Source: Promethearchaeota archaeon
GTDB taxonomy: Archaea > Asgardarchaeota > Lokiarchaeia > Sigyniarchaeales > SOKP01
Reading direction: 5' to 3'
Length of the DNA stretch: 64,000 nucleotides
Assembly: GCA_030599585.1 (NCBI GenBank)
Contig: JAUVNS010000001.1
Span: 64,001-128,000, forward strand
Every line of letters starts with the position of its first letter. Positions within the stretch are counted from its first letter, which is position 1. The notes below the pieces were generated by a model. It was given only the letters and a program-made list of their open reading frames with translations, was not told where the DNA came from and searched no databases. The position numbers and the translations under genes were made by a program. Shown here piece after piece: positions 54,344 to 63,092 of the stretch.

Positions 54344-55393
54344 ATGAAGAAGCTAATTGATGCTGTAATATATACAGATGTTCACGATGAACTCGGTCCG
54401 AATCCCATTCTTTGGCTACCGCCAAATTTACCTGAATCTGTCAGAATGTTAGTAGGAATTAAAACTGTAACATTACTTACAGGTGACCAAGGGTCTGTAC
54501 CAGATTCGCTATTAATAATCCCTTTTCCTTCACTTAAATTAAAAGGATTAATTAGATATATAGAAAGAGAAGATGAAAGTAAAAGAGGAGGATTCGCAAG
54601 AAGTGCAATAACATTCTTGTTTAAAGAAACAGATGATGTGATTTTCTATAAATATATGGGTTATCTTAAAGCTCCCTTCGATGAAACTTCGAGAAAAATA
54701 ATTGAATTAGAGAACAACCATGCAGAAAGTTCAAAAATCTTTGAAGAGATTAAAATTTTACGAGATAGCGTCAGTGAATTACTAGATGATTTTAGAACTA
54801 AAGAAATAACTTCACCAGCATCAAAAGAATTTCCAGAAAAACGAGTTAAAGATGATAAAGTAGTAGATTATAGACTTAAACTCGTAATAGTTGGAGATCC
54901 TGGAGTAGGTAAGACATCTACCATACTAAGATTTACTGATAACGCGTTCTTAAGAACATATGTTCCAACACTTGGGGTATCCATTACTGAAAAATTATTT
55001 GATACCAAAAGCGGAGTAATAGAAACGATCTTATGGGACATCGCAGGACAAGCAAAATTTGAGACGATGAGAAGACATTTCTACCAAGGCTCTGAGGCGA
55101 TATTACTTATTTTTGATCTAACTAATAGAAATTCCTTTACAAGTATAAAATCGTGGTATCATGACGTTATGAAAAACATGGAGAAACATCACCACAAAAT
55201 GTCGGGTTATATTTTTGGAAATAAAAGTGATTTAATCGAACTACGAAAAGTTAAATTAGTTGAAGCTTTAGCTTTAGCTAAGGAATTGAATTTAAAATAC
55301 ATAGAAATATCTGCCCTAACTGGTAAAAATGTCGAATACGCTTTTTATGATATTGCCAACACAGTCGTAAAAATGCGTTTGAACAAACCTTAA
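54344..55393 (+). CDS. uDENN/longin-domain Rab-like small GTPase (paralogue of 20183-21220)
   Basis: HDELGPNP…PFP…DESKRG; GDPGVGKT, YVPTLG, WDIAGQ, NKSD, EISAL. Confidence 0.88.
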   Translation: MKKLIDAVIYTDVHDELGPNPILWLPPNLPESVRMLVGIKTVTLLTGDQGSVPDSLLIIPFPSLKLKGLIRYIEREDESKRGGFARSAITFLFKETDDVIFYKYMGYLKAPFDETSRKIIELENNHAESSKIFEEIKILRDSVSELLDDFRTKEITSPASKEFPEKRVKDDKVVDYRLKLVIVGDPGVGKTSTILRFTDNAFLRTYVPTLGVSITEKLFDTKSGVIETILWDIAGQAKFETMRRHFYQGSEAILLIFDLTNRNSFTSIKSWYHDVMKNMEKHHHKMSGYIFGNKSDLIELRKVKLVEALALAKELNLKYIEISALTGKNVEYAFYDIANTVVKMRLNKP

Positions 55394-55977: not shown

Positions 55978-56365
55978 AAGAGAGTAATAGTAATGAATTT
56001 TGCCCTCCTCCTACTCTCTCTTAATTAAATTACTTAAATAACAACTGTTTAGAGCGTTAAATACCCCACCCATAGATTTTTGTCATAAAATCTATAAAAT
56101 AGATATTGATTATGAAAATATAAGTGTTATTCCCCAGAATTGAGGAAAATTTTCCTGCGTCACTTAGATTGTCCTCAATCATGGAGAAAAATTTAGTTAT
56201 TCTCTAAATTTACGCCTTGGTTCTCATTTTTTATCAAAAAGTCTGCTAAATGAGTCGGATTTGTTAATCATCTTAACATTAAATTTATATTCAATTAAGG
56301 TCATTTAATATTTACGCTAAATAATTTTATATGAATAAATATTTACAATTTGTTGCAAGATAAAT

Positions 56366-56917
56366 ATGTCAAATCAAAAAAATGAAAAAAAAATGGTAAC
56401 CTTGGTTAGTCCACTGTCAATGAGAGAGTTTGAGGCTTTATTGATAATTTTAAAAAACGATGGGGAGGAATTAGCAGTTTTAAAAGCTGCAATCGATGCG
56501 AGATTTAAACTTGGGAGTAGAACTAAAGGGTACGATTATATAAGAAATCTGTGCACTAAGAATTTCACCGTTAAAAAAATTTCTGATCCAGTTGCTGGCA
56601 GGAAGAGAATCGTGAGAATTTTTGTAGAAAAAAAAGTAAGGAGTGAATACGAGAGATTAATCTTGCCCACAGTGAAAAATTTAAATGAATCGATAAAAAA
56701 ACTTTCCAAGGATTACATGGAAGAGATTAAAGAAGAAGAAAAACTAATGGAGAAATTTAGAACCTATACAGAAACTATTCTTAAGGGTATCAATCATGTA
56801 TTGGAGGATACACCGACAAGAAATTATACTCAAAAGAAACTTGAAAGAAAAATAGAGGATACGATCTGGCGTTATTTTCGCGCGGAAATGTTAAAAATTG
56901 AAATGTTTTCAAAATAA
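56366..56917 (+). CDS. putative winged-helix DNA-binding protein
   Basis: LSMREFEALLII…KGYDYIRNLCTKNF…GRKRIVRI resembles a MarR/PadR wHTH, followed by a coiled coil. Confidence 0.5.
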   Translation: MSNQKNEKKMVTLVSPLSMREFEALLIILKNDGEELAVLKAAIDARFKLGSRTKGYDYIRNLCTKNFTVKKISDPVAGRKRIVRIFVEKKVRSEYERLILPTVKNLNESIKKLSKDYMEEIKEEEKLMEKFRTYTETILKGINHVLEDTPTRNYTQKKLERKIEDTIWRYFRAEMLKIEMFSK

Positions 56918-56962: not shown

Positions 56963-56988
56963 AAAGTCATAACATTTAAAAATTCATA
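56963..56988 (+). promoter_or_regulatory. BRE/TATA-like promoter element duplicated upstream of each 7TM gene
   Basis: AAAGTCATAACATTTAAAAA; near copies with TTTAAAAA at 57838, 58758 and 59625, each 30-35 nt before a TTG start. Confidence 0.6.
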
Positions 56989-57004: not shown

Positions 57005-57727
57005 TTGCTATTTCAAAATGAAATTATTGTAAGATTAATTGCTGCATCAGTGCTTCAAGTATGGCCGATTTTTTACTTATCTTATTTCACATATAGATTA
57101 CTAAGGCGAGCTAAAAATCGTTCAACTTATATTTTGAGTGCTTATTTCGTAACAACAGCACTTGCTTATTTTCTTGCCACTCTTTCAATTTTTTTAACAA
57201 ATACGCCCTTTGCTTACATCATTTATGTGCTTTCAATTTATGTTTTTGTTTTTAGTTATAGTTTTTTAATAAATTTTAGCTGGTTACTTACTCGACTAGA
57301 TGAAAAACCACACTATACAAAGCTTTATTTAAGAATAATTTTCTACGCGATCTTATCACTCTATGTTATTGTAATTAGTATTCCATTTAATGGTATAGCC
57401 TTAGATGCAAGTACTGGATGGACACCTAATTACAGTTGGCTCTTTCTTGTTTTTAGTTGGATTTATTTCTTGATTTTATTAATTATTCCACAAATATATT
57501 TCTCGTTTAAAATTTTAAAAGTATATGAGGGAGTTGTCCTCAAGAAGAGATTAAATTCATTTATATTTAGTGTCTTTCTATCTTTGTCATTGGCTATTTC
57601 GCTATTCTTGTATCACACATGGATTGAAAATCTAATTTTCAGGACATTTCATATTTTTCTGGGGCTAGTATTTGGGATATCAGCTGCATATTTAATATAC
57701 AAGGGATTCGGGAAGCAACTGGAATAA
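57005..57727 (+). CDS. stand-alone 7TM receptor-like protein, copy 1
   Basis: Seven hydrophobic helices, LLRRAKNRS loop, STGWTP hairpin, YKGFGK end; TTG start. Confidence 0.8.
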   Translation: MLFQNEIIVRLIAASVLQVWPIFYLSYFTYRLLRRAKNRSTYILSAYFVTTALAYFLATLSIFLTNTPFAYIIYVLSIYVFVFSYSFLINFSWLLTRLDEKPHYTKLYLRIIFYAILSLYVIVISIPFNGIALDASTGWTPNYSWLFLVFSWIYFLILLIIPQIYFSFKILKVYEGVVLKKRLNSFIFSVFLSLSLAISLFLYHTWIENLIFRTFHIFLGLVFGISAAYLIYKGFGKQLE

Positions 57728-57872
57728 AAAATAATGAACATTTCCTGACCTTTAATTTATTATATTTATCTCCCAAATAACTTAGAAACCATTATAATAG
57801 AAAAGATATAAGACCTCTATGGAATAAAGTCAAAACATTTAAAAAATCATGCACTTTTTTGTATACAATGCG

Positions 57873-58595
57873 TTGCTGTTTCAAAATGAATTTTTTGTCA
57901 GATTAATTGTTGTTTCAGTTTTTCAAATATGGCCTGTTGTTTACGGGTCATATTTCGCCTATAAGTTATTAAAGCGGGCTAAAAATCGCTCTACTTATAC
58001 AATGAGTGGCTATTTTATAACCACTGCTCTTACTTATTTTCTTGCAACGATTTCAACATTTTTGGTAAATACACCCTTTTCTTACATTCTTTACGTGATT
58101 TCAATTTATGTGTTTGTTTTTAGCTATAGTTTTGCAATAAATTTTAGCTGGCTTCTTACTAGACTTGATGAAAAATCGTGTAATACTAAATTTTACTTAA
58201 GAACAACTCTTTACGCAATCTTATCACTATATGTTCTATTGGTTGCCATTCCTTTTAACGGCATAACCTTAAATGCGAGTACTGGTTGGATTCCTACTTA
58301 TAGTTGGTTCTTTCTTGGCATTAGTTGGACTTACTTCTTGATTTTTTTAATTATTCCACAAATATATCTCTCGTTTAAAATTTTGAAAGTATACGAGGGT
58401 GTTGCTCTTAAACATAGATTAAATATGTTTCTAATTAGCGTATTGTTAGTGATGGTGTTGGCAGTTTTTATGTTATTATATAACACATGGACTGAAAATG
58501 TAATTTTCCGGACATTTTACGTTTTTATAATGCCGGAATTAGGTGTATTTGCCGCTTATTTCGTCTACAAAGGATTCGGAAAGATGCTAGATTAA
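57873..58595 (+). CDS. stand-alone 7TM receptor-like protein, copy 2
   Basis: Paralogue; TTG at 57873 aligns with the MLFQNE start of the other copies. Confidence 0.8.
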   Translation: MLFQNEFFVRLIVVSVFQIWPVVYGSYFAYKLLKRAKNRSTYTMSGYFITTALTYFLATISTFLVNTPFSYILYVISIYVFVFSYSFAINFSWLLTRLDEKSCNTKFYLRTTLYAILSLYVLLVAIPFNGITLNASTGWIPTYSWFFLGISWTYFLIFLIIPQIYLSFKILKVYEGVALKHRLNMFLISVLLVMVLAVFMLLYNTWTENVIFRTFYVFIMPELGVFAAYFVYKGFGKMLD

Positions 58596-58787
58596 TGAAT
58601 AATGTTAATTTCTTCGATATTATATTGTAATTTCTGTGAAAACCTTTGCCTCTTCAACGGTAACCATCCTAATCTATACACAGAAAATAATGAGATGGAA
58701 AAAATGCTGGAGTTTTGATAGAATATATATTCAGAATTATATAAAAAAGTCATAACCTTTAAAAAAACAAAAAGTCATGTATATTTA

Positions 58788-59519
58788 TTGTTATTTCAAA
58801 ACGAATTTATTGTCAGATTAATTGTTGTTTCAGTTTTTCAAATATGGCCAATTTTCTACGCGTCGTATTTCGCCTTTAAATTACTAAAGCGCGCTAAAAA
58901 TCGTTCGACTTATACGTTAAGTAGTTTTTTCATTTTAACAGCTCTTACTTATTTTCTTGCTTCACTTTCAACTTTTTTAGTCGCTACGCCTTTGTTTACC
59001 TTTACTCACATTATTTATGTGCTTTCAATTTACACGCTTATCTTTAGCTATAGTTTTTTAATAAATTTTAGCTGGTTACTTACTAAACTTGATGAAAAAA
59101 CATGCCCTACTAAATTTTACTTAAGAGCAATTCTTTATGCGATTTTATCTCTATATGTTTTAGTGATTGCGATTCCGTTTCACGGTATAACCTTAAGTGC
59201 AAGCACTGGGTGGATACCTGTTTACAGCTGGTTCTTTCTTGGTTTTAGTTGGACTTTTATCTTGATTTTTTTTATTATTCCACAAGTATTTTTATCTTTA
59301 AAAATTGTGAAAATATATGAAGGCATTGTCCTCAGGAGAAGATTAAATCTTTTTCTAATAAGTGTGTTTTTGGGATTGTTAATACCCATTTTTGTATTCT
59401 TATATCACGCTATGCCTGAAAATATAGTTTTCAGGACATTTTATCTTTTAACAATGCCGGAAGTAGGAGTATATGCTGCTTATTTAATATATAAAGGATT
59501 CGGGAAGGAACTGGATTAA
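58788..59519 (+). CDS. stand-alone 7TM receptor-like protein, copy 3
   Basis: Paralogue with a 3-aa insertion after TM2. Confidence 0.8.
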   Translation: MLFQNEFIVRLIVVSVFQIWPIFYASYFAFKLLKRAKNRSTYTLSSFFILTALTYFLASLSTFLVATPLFTFTHIIYVLSIYTLIFSYSFLINFSWLLTKLDEKTCPTKFYLRAILYAILSLYVLVIAIPFHGITLSASTGWIPVYSWFFLGFSWTFILIFFIIPQVFLSLKIVKIYEGIVLRRRLNLFLISVFLGLLIPIFVFLYHAMPENIVFRTFYLLTMPEVGVYAAYLIYKGFGKELD

Positions 59520-59655
59520 AAAATAACGATTAATCAATCAATACACAAGAAATTTTGTATTATAAAAAAACGCTGGAGATTTAATAGAATAAAAATAAGG
59601 AACATATAGAAAAGAGTCATAACATTTAAAAATTCATACACTGAATTATGATACA

Positions 59656-60387
59656 TTGCTATTTCAAAACGAATTTATTGTCAGATTAATTGTTGTTTCA
59701 GTTTTTCAGATATGGCCAATTTTTTACTCGTCCTATTTCGCCTATAAATTACTCAAGCGAGCTAAAAATCGTTCTACTTATACTTTGAGTAGTTTTTTCA
59801 TACTTACCGCTCTTACTTATTTTCTTGCAACAGTTTCAACTTTTTTAGTAGCTACTCCTTTGTTTTCCTTTACTTACATCATTTATGTGCTTTCAATCTA
59901 CACGCTTATATTTAGTTATAGTATTCTAATAAATTTTAGTTGGTTACTTATTAATCTTGATAAAAAAGCATCTTCCACTAAATTTTACTTAAGAATTGCT
60001 TTTTATGCGATCTTATCACTCTATGTTCTTATAATTGCTATTCCATTTAATGGAGTGATCTTAAATGCGAGTATTGGTTGGATTCCTCAATACAGTTGGT
60101 TCATGCTTGGTTTTAGTTGGGTTTTTATCTTGATTTTTTTAATTATCCCTCAAATATATTTCTCGTTTAAAATTATGAAAGTATACGAGGGTGTTGTCCT
60201 CAAGAAAAGATTAAATTTATTTATTTTTAGCGTATTTTTGGGATTCCTAATCCCCATTTTTCTCTTCGTATATCACGCAATGCCTGAAAATGTAATTTTT
60301 AGGACGAGTTATTTTTTAACACTGCCAGGAGTAGGAGTAGTGGCTGCTTATTTAGTATACAAAGGATTCGGGAAGGAACTGGATTAA
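59656..60387 (+). CDS. stand-alone 7TM receptor-like protein, copy 4
   Basis: Paralogue most similar to copy 3. Confidence 0.8.
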   Translation: MLFQNEFIVRLIVVSVFQIWPIFYSSYFAYKLLKRAKNRSTYTLSSFFILTALTYFLATVSTFLVATPLFSFTYIIYVLSIYTLIFSYSILINFSWLLINLDKKASSTKFYLRIAFYAILSLYVLIIAIPFNGVILNASIGWIPQYSWFMLGFSWVFILIFLIIPQIYFSFKIMKVYEGVVLKKRLNLFIFSVFLGFLIPIFLFVYHAMPENVIFRTSYFLTLPGVGVVAAYLVYKGFGKELD

Positions 60388-60421: not shown

Positions 60422-61135
60422 CTAAAGATATTTTAAAGCTAATTCGGTCGATTCTCGAGCTTCGTCCACGCTGACCATACCTATTGTAGTGCAGCAGATG
60501 TTATGCTTAGAAATGTACTCATAAGCTTTTTTAGGGTTCAATTTACCGGCTGCTAGCGTTTTCATTCCAATAAAGTGATGATCTTTATGGTTATTTACTT
60601 GATTTTCAAGCTCTTTTTGATTCCCCATTAAATACCCCCGAGCGTTAAATGGAATTAAAAACGCTTTTACATTAGGAAGGTTTTCGAAAGCGTATTCCAA
60701 GGTAGAAACGGGATTATGCGCAGCTATTCCGGGTATTATTCCCATTGACTCAATCTCAGCAATAAATTTCTCTAATTTCTCATCTTTTTTATCCGCGACC
60801 ATTCCGTGGGCAAAAACTATTTTAGCTCCAAGTTCAGCTAATTCTTTAATGAGAGGATCAGGTCCCGGAAAAGTAGACCCCGTAATGACAAAGTCGCTAT
60901 GAGTTTCAACCATTATTTTAGCTGCATTGGTGATTTTTCCACCCGGGATTAATTGTATTCCGCGACCCCCTACTTCATAAGACGCTTCCAGTATCTCTAA
61001 CACAGCTTCCGCGTTATTTAAGAATTTTCTTCGGTATACACGCGCATTCTTTCCGAATTGGGAAGCTCCAAAGAATGGTGAGGTCCCTACCGATACTATC
61101 GGTATTTCCTGGCCTTCGATTTTACAAAATATGAT
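60422..61135 (-). CDS. aldo/keto-reductase-like TIM-barrel protein (probable non-canonical ATC/ATA start)
   Basis: GIAAHNP, PFNARGY, GMKTLAAGKL, IGMVS; the frame extends 44 codons upstream of the track GTG to include VGTSPFFGASQFG. Confidence 0.7.
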   Translation of the reverse strand: MIFCKIEGQEIPIVSVGTSPFFGASQFGKNARVYRRKFLNNAEAVLEILEASYEVGGRGIQLIPGGKITNAAKIMVETHSDFVITGSTFPGPDPLIKELAELGAKIVFAHGMVADKKDEKLEKFIAEIESMGIIPGIAAHNPVSTLEYAFENLPNVKAFLIPFNARGYLMGNQKELENQVNNHKDHHFIGMKTLAAGKLNPKKAYEYISKHNICCTTIGMVSVDEARESTELALKYL

Positions 61136-61268
61136 CTCTACACCTTTTTATTTAGGCTTTTAAACCAAAATTCTTCAAATAATAAAACTTTTATGAGATT
61201 TAATTAATAACTTCAGATAAATACTAACTATAAAATAAAATTATAAAAATGATTCAATTTGATGAGAA

Positions 61269-63092
61269 ATGACAGACCCTAAAGCTATAGAAAACAATCC
61301 TTTTAAAGAGTTAGGTGAAATTCCAGAAAAAAAATACGCCGATGGATATATAGTTGATTCGACATATATAACCGTAAGAGAGGGCGTTAAAATTGCTGCT
61401 ACTATCTGTCTCCCGAAGGGACTTTCCATAGATACTAAAATTCCTACAGTGTTAACGCAAACGAGGTATTGGAGAGCAATGGAATTACGAATTCCTTTTA
61501 GGTGGGTTCTTGATAGTATGGTGCCTAATACTCCAAACCCGGAGGTTATTACTAGTCGAGGTTACGCACTTATTTATACTGATGTCAGAGGAACTGGGGC
61601 ATCAGATGGTACTCGGGTAGTTCCGTTTTCTGAAGAAGAGATCATGGACGGTTCTGATGTAATTGATTGGATAATATCTCAGCCTTGGTCAGATGGAAAC
61701 GTCGTATCTAAAGGTATTTCGTATACTGGAACTACAGCGGAGTTATTTGCTAAGAATAATCACAGCGCAATAAAAGCGGTTGTACCGGGACATGGTTTCT
61801 GGGATCCTTACACAGATGTCGCATTTCCAGGTGGATGTTTCGACCATGCCTTTATGCAATTATGGTCATTTTTAGGGAAGAATTTAGATTTAAATAGTCC
61901 TAAAGTCTTCAGACAATTAATGCCCGGAGTTTGGTTACTTGCAAAAGGTGTAAAACCTGTAAAAAGCGACAACGACCTAAAATTATTACAAGATGCTATA
62001 AAACAACATAAATCAAATAAATATGTTTACGAGCATACGCTAACTAGGGATTTTCGCGACGACAAGCTTCCTGATGGCACCGTTTTTGACGATCTTAGTA
62101 TATTTGCTCGAAAAGAAAAGATTGAAAGTTCAAACATTCCAATGTTGGCTTGGTGTTCGTGGTTAGATTCTGGTTATGGAGACGCAATTGTTAATCGATT
62201 TATGAATACATCTACTTCTCAAATTGCTATTTTGGGCGATTGGAGCCACGGAGCTGGCTACCCTGCAAACCAGTTTTTTCCTAATCGGACTTTCGTAACT
62301 CCGACTCCTGAAGATAAGGTTCACGCATGGATTAATTTCTTCGATAAATGCGTATATGGCGATGGAATACAAGGAAAAACTATATATTATTATACTCTAG
62401 CGGAAGAAAAATGGAAGAAGTCGAATGTTTGGCCCCCTAAAGGGCACTTTTATCAAAAATGGTATTTTTCAGAAAACAATTCGCTAATAAGAGAAGAACC
62501 TAAGGAAAATACTGGATCCGACGATTACAAAGTAAATTACCGGGCTACAACCGGACGGAATAATAGATGGTGGGCGCTTTTAGGTTTGCCTATAACATAT
62601 TATAACAGAAACAAAATCGATGAGAAGTTGTTATGTTATACAAGCAAACCTTTCGAATCTGATACAGTAATCACCGGTCAAATAATTGCATGTCTTTATT
62701 TATCCTCCACCCACAAAGATGGTGCTATTTTCGCTTATTTTGAGGATGTTGATGAGAGTGGTAATGTTACATATATTACCGATGGAGAGTTCCGACCACT
62801 CCACAGAAAAATTCTAACAGATGAGCCACCGTATAAAATGTTAATTCCTTACCATAGTTATAAAAAAGAAGATTCTGCGCCTTTAATTCCAGGAGAGATA
62901 ACTGAGGTTAAGTTTGGGTTCCATGTAACTTCAGTTCTTATTAAAAAAGGACATAAAATTAAAATTGCCATTGCTGGAGCCGATAAAGATACATTTATAC
63001 GTTATCCTGCAGAGGGAAGGCCTACGATTACTATTTCTCGAAATAAAGACTTTCCGTCTTATATTGAACTTCCAATTATAAAGAAGGAGTAA
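61269..63092 (+). CDS. CocE/NonD family serine hydrolase
   Basis: TRY, DVRGTGASDG, WIISQPWSDG, GISY nucleophile elbow, WSHG, C-terminal PepX-like domain. Confidence 0.9.
   Translation: MTDPKAIENNPFKELGEIPEKKYADGYIVDSTYITVREGVKIAATICLPKGLSIDTKIPTVLTQTRYWRAMELRIPFRWVLDSMVPNTPNPEVITSRGYALIYTDVRGTGASDGTRVVPFSEEEIMDGSDVIDWIISQPWSDGNVVSKGISYTGTTAELFAKNNHSAIKAVVPGHGFWDPYTDVAFPGGCFDHAFMQLWSFLGKNLDLNSPKVFRQLMPGVWLLAKGVKPVKSDNDLKLLQDAIKQHKSNKYVYEHTLTRDFRDDKLPDGTVFDDLSIFARKEKIESSNIPMLAWCSWLDSGYGDAIVNRFMNTSTSQIAILGDWSHGAGYPANQFFPNRTFVTPTPEDKVHAWINFFDKCVYGDGIQGKTIYYYTLAEEKWKKSNVWPPKGHFYQKWYFSENNSLIREEPKENTGSDDYKVNYRATTGRNNRWWALLGLPITYYNRNKIDEKLLCYTSKPFESDTVITGQIIACLYLSSTHKDGAIFAYFEDVDESGNVTYITDGEFRPLHRKILTDEPPYKMLIPYHSYKKEDSAPLIPGEITEVKFGFHVTSVLIKKGHKIKIAIAGADKDTFIRYPAEGRPTITISRNKDFPSYIELPIIKKE

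Follow-up and report, generated by a model that had tools for sequence, protein, structure and literature searches.

A tandem array of free-standing, GPCR-fold seven-helix genes and an adjacent winged-helix gene: a candidate membrane-to-DNA module in Lokiarchaeia

The window analysed here is a 64,000-nucleotide stretch of the genome of a Promethearchaeota archaeon of the Lokiarchaeia (assembly GCA_030599585.1, contig JAUVNS010000001.1, positions 64,001 to 128,000 of the forward strand). It carries four co-oriented, intact, stand-alone genes, R1 to R4, for proteins with seven transmembrane helices (7TM; TM1 to TM7). Sequence and model comparisons indicate that these receptor-like proteins are a free-standing branch of a prokaryotic 7TM sensor superfamily that has its fold in common with G protein-coupled receptors (GPCRs). 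A gene for a winged helix-turn-helix (wHTH) protein precedes them. Our leading reading, drawn by analogy with a known system and held with reserve, is that the receptors respond to a small molecule by capturing the wHTH protein or letting it go, and that the wHTH protein would regulate transcription through palindromic sites. The genes concerned are as follows.

57005..57727, + strand: 7TM receptor-like gene R1, 240 amino acids (aa), the copy used in complex prediction
57873..58595, + strand: 7TM receptor-like gene R2, 240 aa from a TTG start, with a Glu in mid-TM7
58788..59519, + strand: 7TM receptor-like gene R3, 243 aa, with a Glu in mid-TM7
59656..60387, + strand: 7TM receptor-like gene R4, 243 aa, the copy that was modelled
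56366..56917, + strand: winged-helix protein, candidate transducer and regulator, 183 aa with three long C-terminal helices

The starts of R1 to R4 are 868, 915 and 868 nucleotides (nt) apart, the products are 240 to 243 aa long, and the G + C content is unremarkable. An AlphaFold2 model of R4, made from an alignment of 138 sequences (mean local confidence, pLDDT, 91; global confidence, pTM, 0.89), has seven helices with a hairpin between TM4 and TM5, no tail domain and no helix 8. The initial annotation, made from the sequence alone, had described four stand-alone paralogues of about 240 aa with this architecture, and the intact open reading frames (ORFs) and the model agree with it. Charge bias indicates an N-out/C-in orientation, with 16 Lys or Arg residues inside versus 2 outside. 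Comparison of the model with 48,161 representatives of the PDB returned GPCRs or GPCR-fold proteins as the top 50 matches (Z 14.9–18.1, root-mean-square deviation 3.4–4.9, 209–240 residues aligned), CD97 among them at Z 18.1, deviation 3.8 and 228 residues aligned. Foldseek concurred, with TM-scores up to 0.64 but no E value below 0.001, and the receptor-type fold that had been proposed is upheld by these searches. The nearest named clusters in a predicted-structure atlas were HisKA_7TM, GGDEF and kinase sensor domains (TM-score 0.66–0.72), and a TAS2R cluster was found at 0.70. Judged from the model, the receptors have a GPCR fold that fits HisKA_7TM sensor domains equally well (TM-score about 0.7).

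Sequence searches of Pfam, NCBIfam and the PDB assigned the receptors to no family. Profile comparison matched the receptor family with the N-terminal domain of Lokiarchaeial 7TM-longin proteins at 96.6% (E 5.5e-10, 217 columns; reversed control 0.5%), in register through all seven helices, and some of these proteins run on into HisKA and HATPase_c. Against HisKA_7TM (PF16927) the match was 88.9% (E 2.4e-6, 162 columns; reversed 1.4%) when computed with the 25 domains over the cut-off, but only 2.6% with the 15 strongest domains alone, and we therefore call the link distant; the PF16927 score of the receptors themselves stayed below the Pfam cut-off (best 0.005, in one of 138 members). HisKA_7TM, first taken for a look-alike, is by these profile tests a distant homologue. 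No fused kinase, cyclase or phosphodiesterase output was found, all 147 representatives being at most 256 aa long; full-length relatives are all about 230–280 aa, and a search for longer, fused forms came back empty, which is weak evidence.

The GPCR-like hallmarks attributed to these proteins at first did not survive, the fold being common to HisKA_7TM sensors. A DRY-like motif occurs in 2 of 138 members and NPxxY in none, and there is no conserved Cys column and no disulfide between TM3 and the second extracellular loop. None of the 138 has a Pfam GPCR match, and a PDB profile search with the family gave no GPCR match and nothing better than E 0.09. G-alpha (PF00503) reached at best 25 bits against a cut-off of 48.8 in this genome, which is rated 100% complete. 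The lack of class A motifs, G-alpha and GPCR profile matches rules out membership of the GPCR family. Rhodopsins are likewise ruled out by the missing retinal-binding Lys in the TM7 core (0 of 138 members, in agreement with its reported absence from the array); that no rhodopsin is listed among the top structural rows is not decisive. Solute_trans_a (TM184/OST-alpha) was not among the Pfam matches of the 138 members.

Nine members of the receptor family were found in this genome, and the family is present in 39 of 40 genomes of the same taxonomic family and in all three of the next, with no more than weak matches in few other Asgard families; homologues whose source is named come from Promethearchaeota/Lokiarchaeota. 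In a tree built by a quick method, clades match gene context: clade A, which includes this array, follows a wHTH gene; clade C consists of two tandem genes preceded by one for a 197-aa protein; and B-type members have two GNAT proteins, a ThiF enzyme and, in many cases, a cytosolic multi-PAS kinase as neighbours. R1 to R4 form one clade (support 93), sister to a single-copy gene of the nearest genome, and other genomes have separate expansions to two or three copies. The array arose by recent tandem duplications, a lineage-specific expansion as the initial annotation had it; an assembly duplication is unlikely because the four proteins are 65–80% identical in pairs and synonymous divergence (dS) among them is 0.5–0.8. 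The first 30 codons of R2 to R4 (57873–57950, 58788–58865 and 59656–59733) are 88–93% identical, above the gene average, possibly through gene conversion. Elsewhere, one locus has an insertion separating the wHTH gene from the receptor, and in two the first receptor copy is broken (L153, L128, L169), which fits birth-and-death turnover.

Some members outside clade A have settings of their own. Two GNAT-like proteins, one of about 415 aa and the other of about 345 aa, make up the B-type cluster together with a ThiF enzyme (PRK08223 is its best match in NCBIfam) and a 7TM gene. The cluster is conserved in 21 loci across several genera (L049–L083; for example L060:1934-9000 and L063, and L051:4349-7500 in this genome), and could possibly be a quorum-sensing-like system of signal synthase and receptor. 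A divergent member at the end of contig C24 (L053:7010-7708) lies amid many HTH genes and a ParB-like gene, surroundings that suggest a receptor-carrying mobile element. At L090:1461-7977, two receptors are interleaved with four paralogous copies of a 280-aa protein whose N-terminus has a zinc-ribbon-like motif; a gene of a second 7TM family comes next. The 197-aa protein before clade C receptors was tried as a degenerate GTPase and failed the profile test (1.6%).

Each gene of the array is preceded by the same promoter-like element.

56963..56982, + strand: element resembling a B recognition element and TATA box (BRE/TATA-like) before R1, TTTAAAAA, 30 nt ahead of the TTG
57826..57845, + strand: BRE/TATA-like element before R2, same element as before R1
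58746..58765, + strand: BRE/TATA-like element before R3, same element as before R1
59613..59632, + strand: BRE/TATA-like element before R4, same element as before R1

All four genes start with TTG, 30–35 nt downstream of the common TATA-like box; for R2 an in-frame ATG at 57849 directly follows the box, upstream of the TTG. The stretch upstream of the receptors is more conserved than four-fold degenerate sites (29 of 52 versus 4 of 25 positions invariant, p 0.001), and therefore each duplication evidently took its own promoter along. A sigma-70 promoter scan, not applicable to archaea, gave chance level, and an Rfam search no match. An out-of-frame ATG also precedes each TTG (57000, 57868, 58777 and 59648, at −5, −5, −11 and −8); all four are in the same frame and open ORFs of 10–14 codons, which may reflect shared ancestry only.

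The distribution of conservation within the receptors was in part as first described. Conservation of cytoplasmic loops 1 and 3 and of the tail is as claimed, but loop 2 ranks with the most variable segments (identity 0.65; ratio of nonsynonymous to synonymous rates, dN/dS, 0.53–0.64). On the outer side, the TM6-loop-TM7 segment is indeed relaxed (dN/dS 0.56–0.64), no more so than inner loop 2, but the TM4-TM5 hairpin and the outer halves of TM1 and TM2 are conserved, the latter being the most conserved part of all (dN/dS 0.13–0.21). The general statement that the inner face is conserved and the outer variable holds for 69 close homologues (identity 0.74 inside versus 0.64 outside, p 0.0004, overstated as the sequences are related) but not significantly for R1 to R4 alone (0.79 versus 0.75, p 0.12). 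R1 departs from two of the quoted loop and helix motifs, having Arg where the first Lys of loop 1 would be and Leu for Phe before the IIP of TM5. Overall dN/dS among the four copies is 0.22–0.38, indicating purifying selection on all of them; no positive selection was found at the regional level, where dN/dS is at most 0.64 and single sites may differ, so that the repertoire cannot be called diversifying on this measure.

Several polar residues of the outer TM1 to TM3 halves are invariant in clade A, Arg10 being nearly family-wide, and the clade has a membrane Glu that lies in TM6 in most members or in TM7 (R2 and R3), seldom in both, and in neither in R1 and R4. This pattern would fit a fixed ligand anchor with a tunable wall, "pocket" residues being assigned by helix position only. 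The shifting Glu could also belong to a transporter, scramblase or intramembrane enzyme, duplicated for dosage or substrate range under wHTH control. The fold reveals no function, proteins of GPCR fold include non-sensors (PMC13581589), and clade B sits within an acyltransferase/ThiF cluster whose product it could export. We nevertheless regard such a role as distinctly unlikely: the top structural matches are all receptors or receptor-like, the homologous domain is the input of histidine kinases, and no conserved His, Cys or acidic catalytic set exists across the family.

A soluble partner shared by the receptors had been proposed, with the adjacent wHTH protein and a Rab-like GTPase farther upstream as candidates; the wHTH protein is upheld as a candidate and the GTPase is not. 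The wHTH gene lies directly upstream of a receptor in 17 of 17 syntenic genome loci, with a gap below 190 nt, while genes farther up change. Of 151 genomes, 17 have clade A receptors, and precisely these 17 contain a full-length wHTH gene, one copy each for one to four receptors. The two genes are adjacent in 47 of 48 informative metagenome loci and interrupted in one, 17 more loci being too short. The wHTH model (pLDDT 77.5, pTM 0.48) matches SarX, MarR, RosR/PadR and MecI/BlaI at Z 8–10; weak TrmB matches occur in 36 of 93 members, and no family match exceeds the cut-off. Conservation is highest in the recognition helix (0.86) and the last helix (0.78), and from the fold and the conserved recognition helix we infer that the protein binds DNA. 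No detectable relation to it links the 184-aa gene that precedes the C24 paralogue, or the genes ahead of two clade members displaced from any wHTH gene.

Candidate operators precede the wHTH gene.

56131..56146, no strand: palindrome 1, candidate operator, 16-bp, consensus TCCYCA-N4-TGRGGA
56172..56187, no strand: palindrome 2, 41 bp after palindrome 1

The palindrome was found by de novo expectation maximisation (log-likelihood 182 versus 31–41 in shuffles). At least one copy precedes the wHTH gene in 17 of 17 genome loci, two of them scoring only 13–15, and in 49 of 50 metagenome loci versus 8 of 581 other genes, a comparison that is partly circular as the motif was trained on these loci. 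Copies are usually paired, with spacings across loci of 30, 41–42 or 52 bp, in steps of one helical turn; this phasing and the freely varying half-sites favour protein-binding DNA sites. The inner arms of the copies can pair with each other as an RNA hairpin (z −2.4). Exact matches elsewhere in the genome lie mostly inside genes. The top-scoring other copy of the palindrome (L274:3773-3788, C41:36772) is 114 nt before a gene for a 2401-aa surface protein with SBP_bac_5 and beta-helix repeats; it is not conserved before homologues in other genomes, and no regulon is therefore claimed.

Complex prediction with R1 and the wHTH protein gave a score of 0.49, whereas the best-scoring of three controls had 0.00; runs agreed in at least 79% of contacts, and the partner pLDDT was at least 61. 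This lends weak support to the pairing that the initial annotation had suggested. Among solved complexes, 58 of 80 attain the mark that this score passes, and among mismatches 2 of 110 do.

The reading that we favour on these data, with reserve, is a two-part membrane-to-DNA module belonging to a single genus of Lokiarchaeia, in which each 7TM protein would be a free-standing sensor of HisKA_7TM/GPCR fold. A small molecule, either extracellular or membrane-borne, would enter an outward pocket anchored by the invariant residues Arg10, Gln18, Trp20, Ser61 and Tyr74 of TM1 to TM3 and tuned by outer TM6 and TM7. The basic cytoplasmic face is weakly predicted to dock the single wHTH protein encoded upstream; the ligand would hold it or free it to act on operator palindromes, among them the two that precede its own gene. 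Tandem duplications with their own promoters could thereby provide four inputs, presumably of distinct ligands, to one output. In this scheme we infer the ligand, the receptor-wHTH contact, the direction of regulation and the targets. Signalling probably goes to the wHTH protein directly rather than through a G protein.

Several observations weigh against this scheme. The score for R1 and the wHTH protein lies where a pass is wrong more often than not; at 0.60 or below the mark is passed by only 7 of the 80 solved complexes and by both mismatches. No interface was returned. All 17 genomes belong to one genus, and the co-occurrence may represent one gain inherited 17 times; a regulator beside genes under its control would give the same linkage without contact. 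The conserved last wHTH helix may serve dimerisation, as in PadR. Two clade A members are away from any wHTH gene (L037, L044), and other receptor clades lie beside other genes without such a wHTH protein, yet have the same cytoplasmic motifs. None of the receptor genes has an operator directly in front of it, and the analysis brought up no conserved target gene.

A further explanation, which we rate as rather unlikely, is that the wHTH protein only controls receptor expression, and the receptors, as a split form of fused 7TM-longin-kinase sensors, signal to a protein whose gene lies elsewhere, for example a soluble histidine kinase of the multi-PAS type or a longin protein. In its favour, the loop 1, loop 3 and tail motifs also occur in clades without the wHTH gene, and sister clade B does lie beside cytosolic multi-PAS kinases in many loci; homologous 7TM domains are fused to longin and kinase, and an intact DNA-reading helix with palindromes upstream is what an autoregulator would have. 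However, the complex prediction is a pass, albeit a weak one, with its controls scoring 0.00, the surroundings of clade A contain no conserved gene for a kinase or longin protein, and the receptors' own promoter-like elements carry no palindrome, so that direct control of them by the wHTH protein is not evident either.

The second partner proposed, the Rab-like GTPase, is encoded farther upstream.

54344..55393, + strand: 349-aa protein with a Rab-like GTPase domain (Pfam Ras 1e-44, G motifs intact), the usual neighbour

The uDENN label given to its N-terminus was not confirmed, no Pfam match being found there. Of 29 metagenome loci that extend far enough, 25 have a GTPase gene upstream, and in 11 of 17 genome loci the 349-aa gene is no more than 7 kb away. 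Together with the cassettes of this genome in which a related family of stand-alone 7TM proteins accompanies small GTPases, this would suit a proto-GPCR arrangement in which the receptors are exchange factors or scaffolds for the 349-aa protein or for a small GTPase of about 190 aa that is often nearby. Such an arrangement is very unlikely in our view: no G-alpha is present in the genome, the GTPase gene is never adjacent to the receptor cassette and is about 11–12 kb off in two genomes, and it has three to five paralogues per genome whether or not the cassette is present. Moreover, at least seven genomes of the genus have its orthologue (56–60% identical, like that of cassette-bearing genomes) without the cassette. 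Lack of adjacency and orthologues without a cassette point to position, not partnership, and the GTPase probably belongs outside the receptor module.

The second stand-alone 7TM family has six copies in this genome and is weakly related to the receptors (70%, E 4e-5). Three copies are in cassettes beside small-GTPase-like genes (L112:3516-4280 and neighbours, L115, L116, L117, L118), and a 249-aa gene near clade C loci is also a member. Among tandem 7TM-longin genes (L110:3007-5300, L111, L119), one pair converges on a small GTPase, and relatives of 620–640 aa carry an added histidine kinase. Downstream of the array (60422–63092 of the window), a divergent barrel-protein gene and a CocE/NonD-type hydrolase gene follow in most clade A loci, with a weak palindrome between them in three genomes; they are possible targets or a possible ligand source. 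The frame of the barrel gene is open upstream of its GTG to about 61141.

A search of the accessible literature found no paper on the receptor family or its wHTH pairing, and the stand-alone receptor-wHTH-operator module appears undescribed. The origin of GPCRs is an open question (PMC13466386), and the step missing from it is a prokaryotic GPCR-fold receptor that has no fused output and signals through a separate protein, for which this locus is a candidate. A broader proposal, speculative and in our judgement unlikely, is that clades of Lokiarchaeial free-standing receptors couple in trans to different outputs, namely a winged-helix factor in clade A, PAS kinases and signal-making enzymes in clade B and small GTPases in the sister family; they would be a living model of the step from fused to separate signalling, and might stand close to where eukaryotic GPCRs came from. 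Should nothing but the regulatory link be true, the locus still represents an undescribed Lokiarchaeial sensor family. The candidate system is small, with a 240-aa receptor, a 183-aa partner, a 16-bp DNA site and four natural variants, and its links are testable with purified parts.

Among known systems, HisKA_7TM (PF16927) and 7TMR-DISM_7TM (PF07695) sensors share the seven helices, the N-out orientation, the TM4-TM5 hairpin and basic loops 1 and 3, whereas the receptors have no output domain, are largely confined to Lokiarchaeia and are paired with a separate wHTH gene. The 7TM-longin and 7TM-longin-HisKA proteins of Lokiarchaeia, found in the same genomes, are homologous over all seven helices, but the receptors end 5–7 residues after TM7 without a longin domain; longin fusions to two-component domains have been described (10.1101/2020.10.19.343400).

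Eukaryotic GPCRs (the adhesion receptors CD97 and ADGRL3, MAS1, GPR3, Frizzled and TAS2R) resemble the receptors in fold and topology (Z 15–18), in a more conserved inner face and in tandem expansion, and a conserved mid-TM5 Pro and an end-TM7 Tyr are candidate counterparts of positions 5.50 and 7.53. They differ in that identity is 5–13% with no sequence match; the receptors lack the class motifs and a disulfide, their model shows no helix 8, and the genome has no G-alpha. The fold link itself is not new, because a similarity path from archaeal 7TM kinases to GPCRs has been published: structure surveys join archaeal 7TM histidine-kinase sensors to GPCRs in few steps (PMC13581589). Archaeal homologues of TM184/OST-alpha were reported in the same source (PMC13581589), and Asgard-eukaryote structural clusters have been labelled GPCR or 7TM, without partners or mechanisms (10.64898/2026.10.28.762692).

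The wHTH protein resembles PadR, MarR, BlaI and TrmB regulators in its domain and in the palindromic sites upstream of its own gene, and differs in a long helical C-terminus without known effector domain; a BlaR-type protease partner is absent. For the pair as a whole, the closest guide is Anabaena sensory rhodopsin, a stand-alone 7TM protein whose co-encoded soluble partner ASRT binds it at the membrane and then promoter DNA (PMC8660804). The present proteins have no retinal lysine, belong to another 7TM lineage and have a winged-helix partner, and their coupling is only predicted; as in Anabaena, a stand-alone 7TM protein is encoded with a soluble, candidate DNA-binding partner, and that system serves as our working model.

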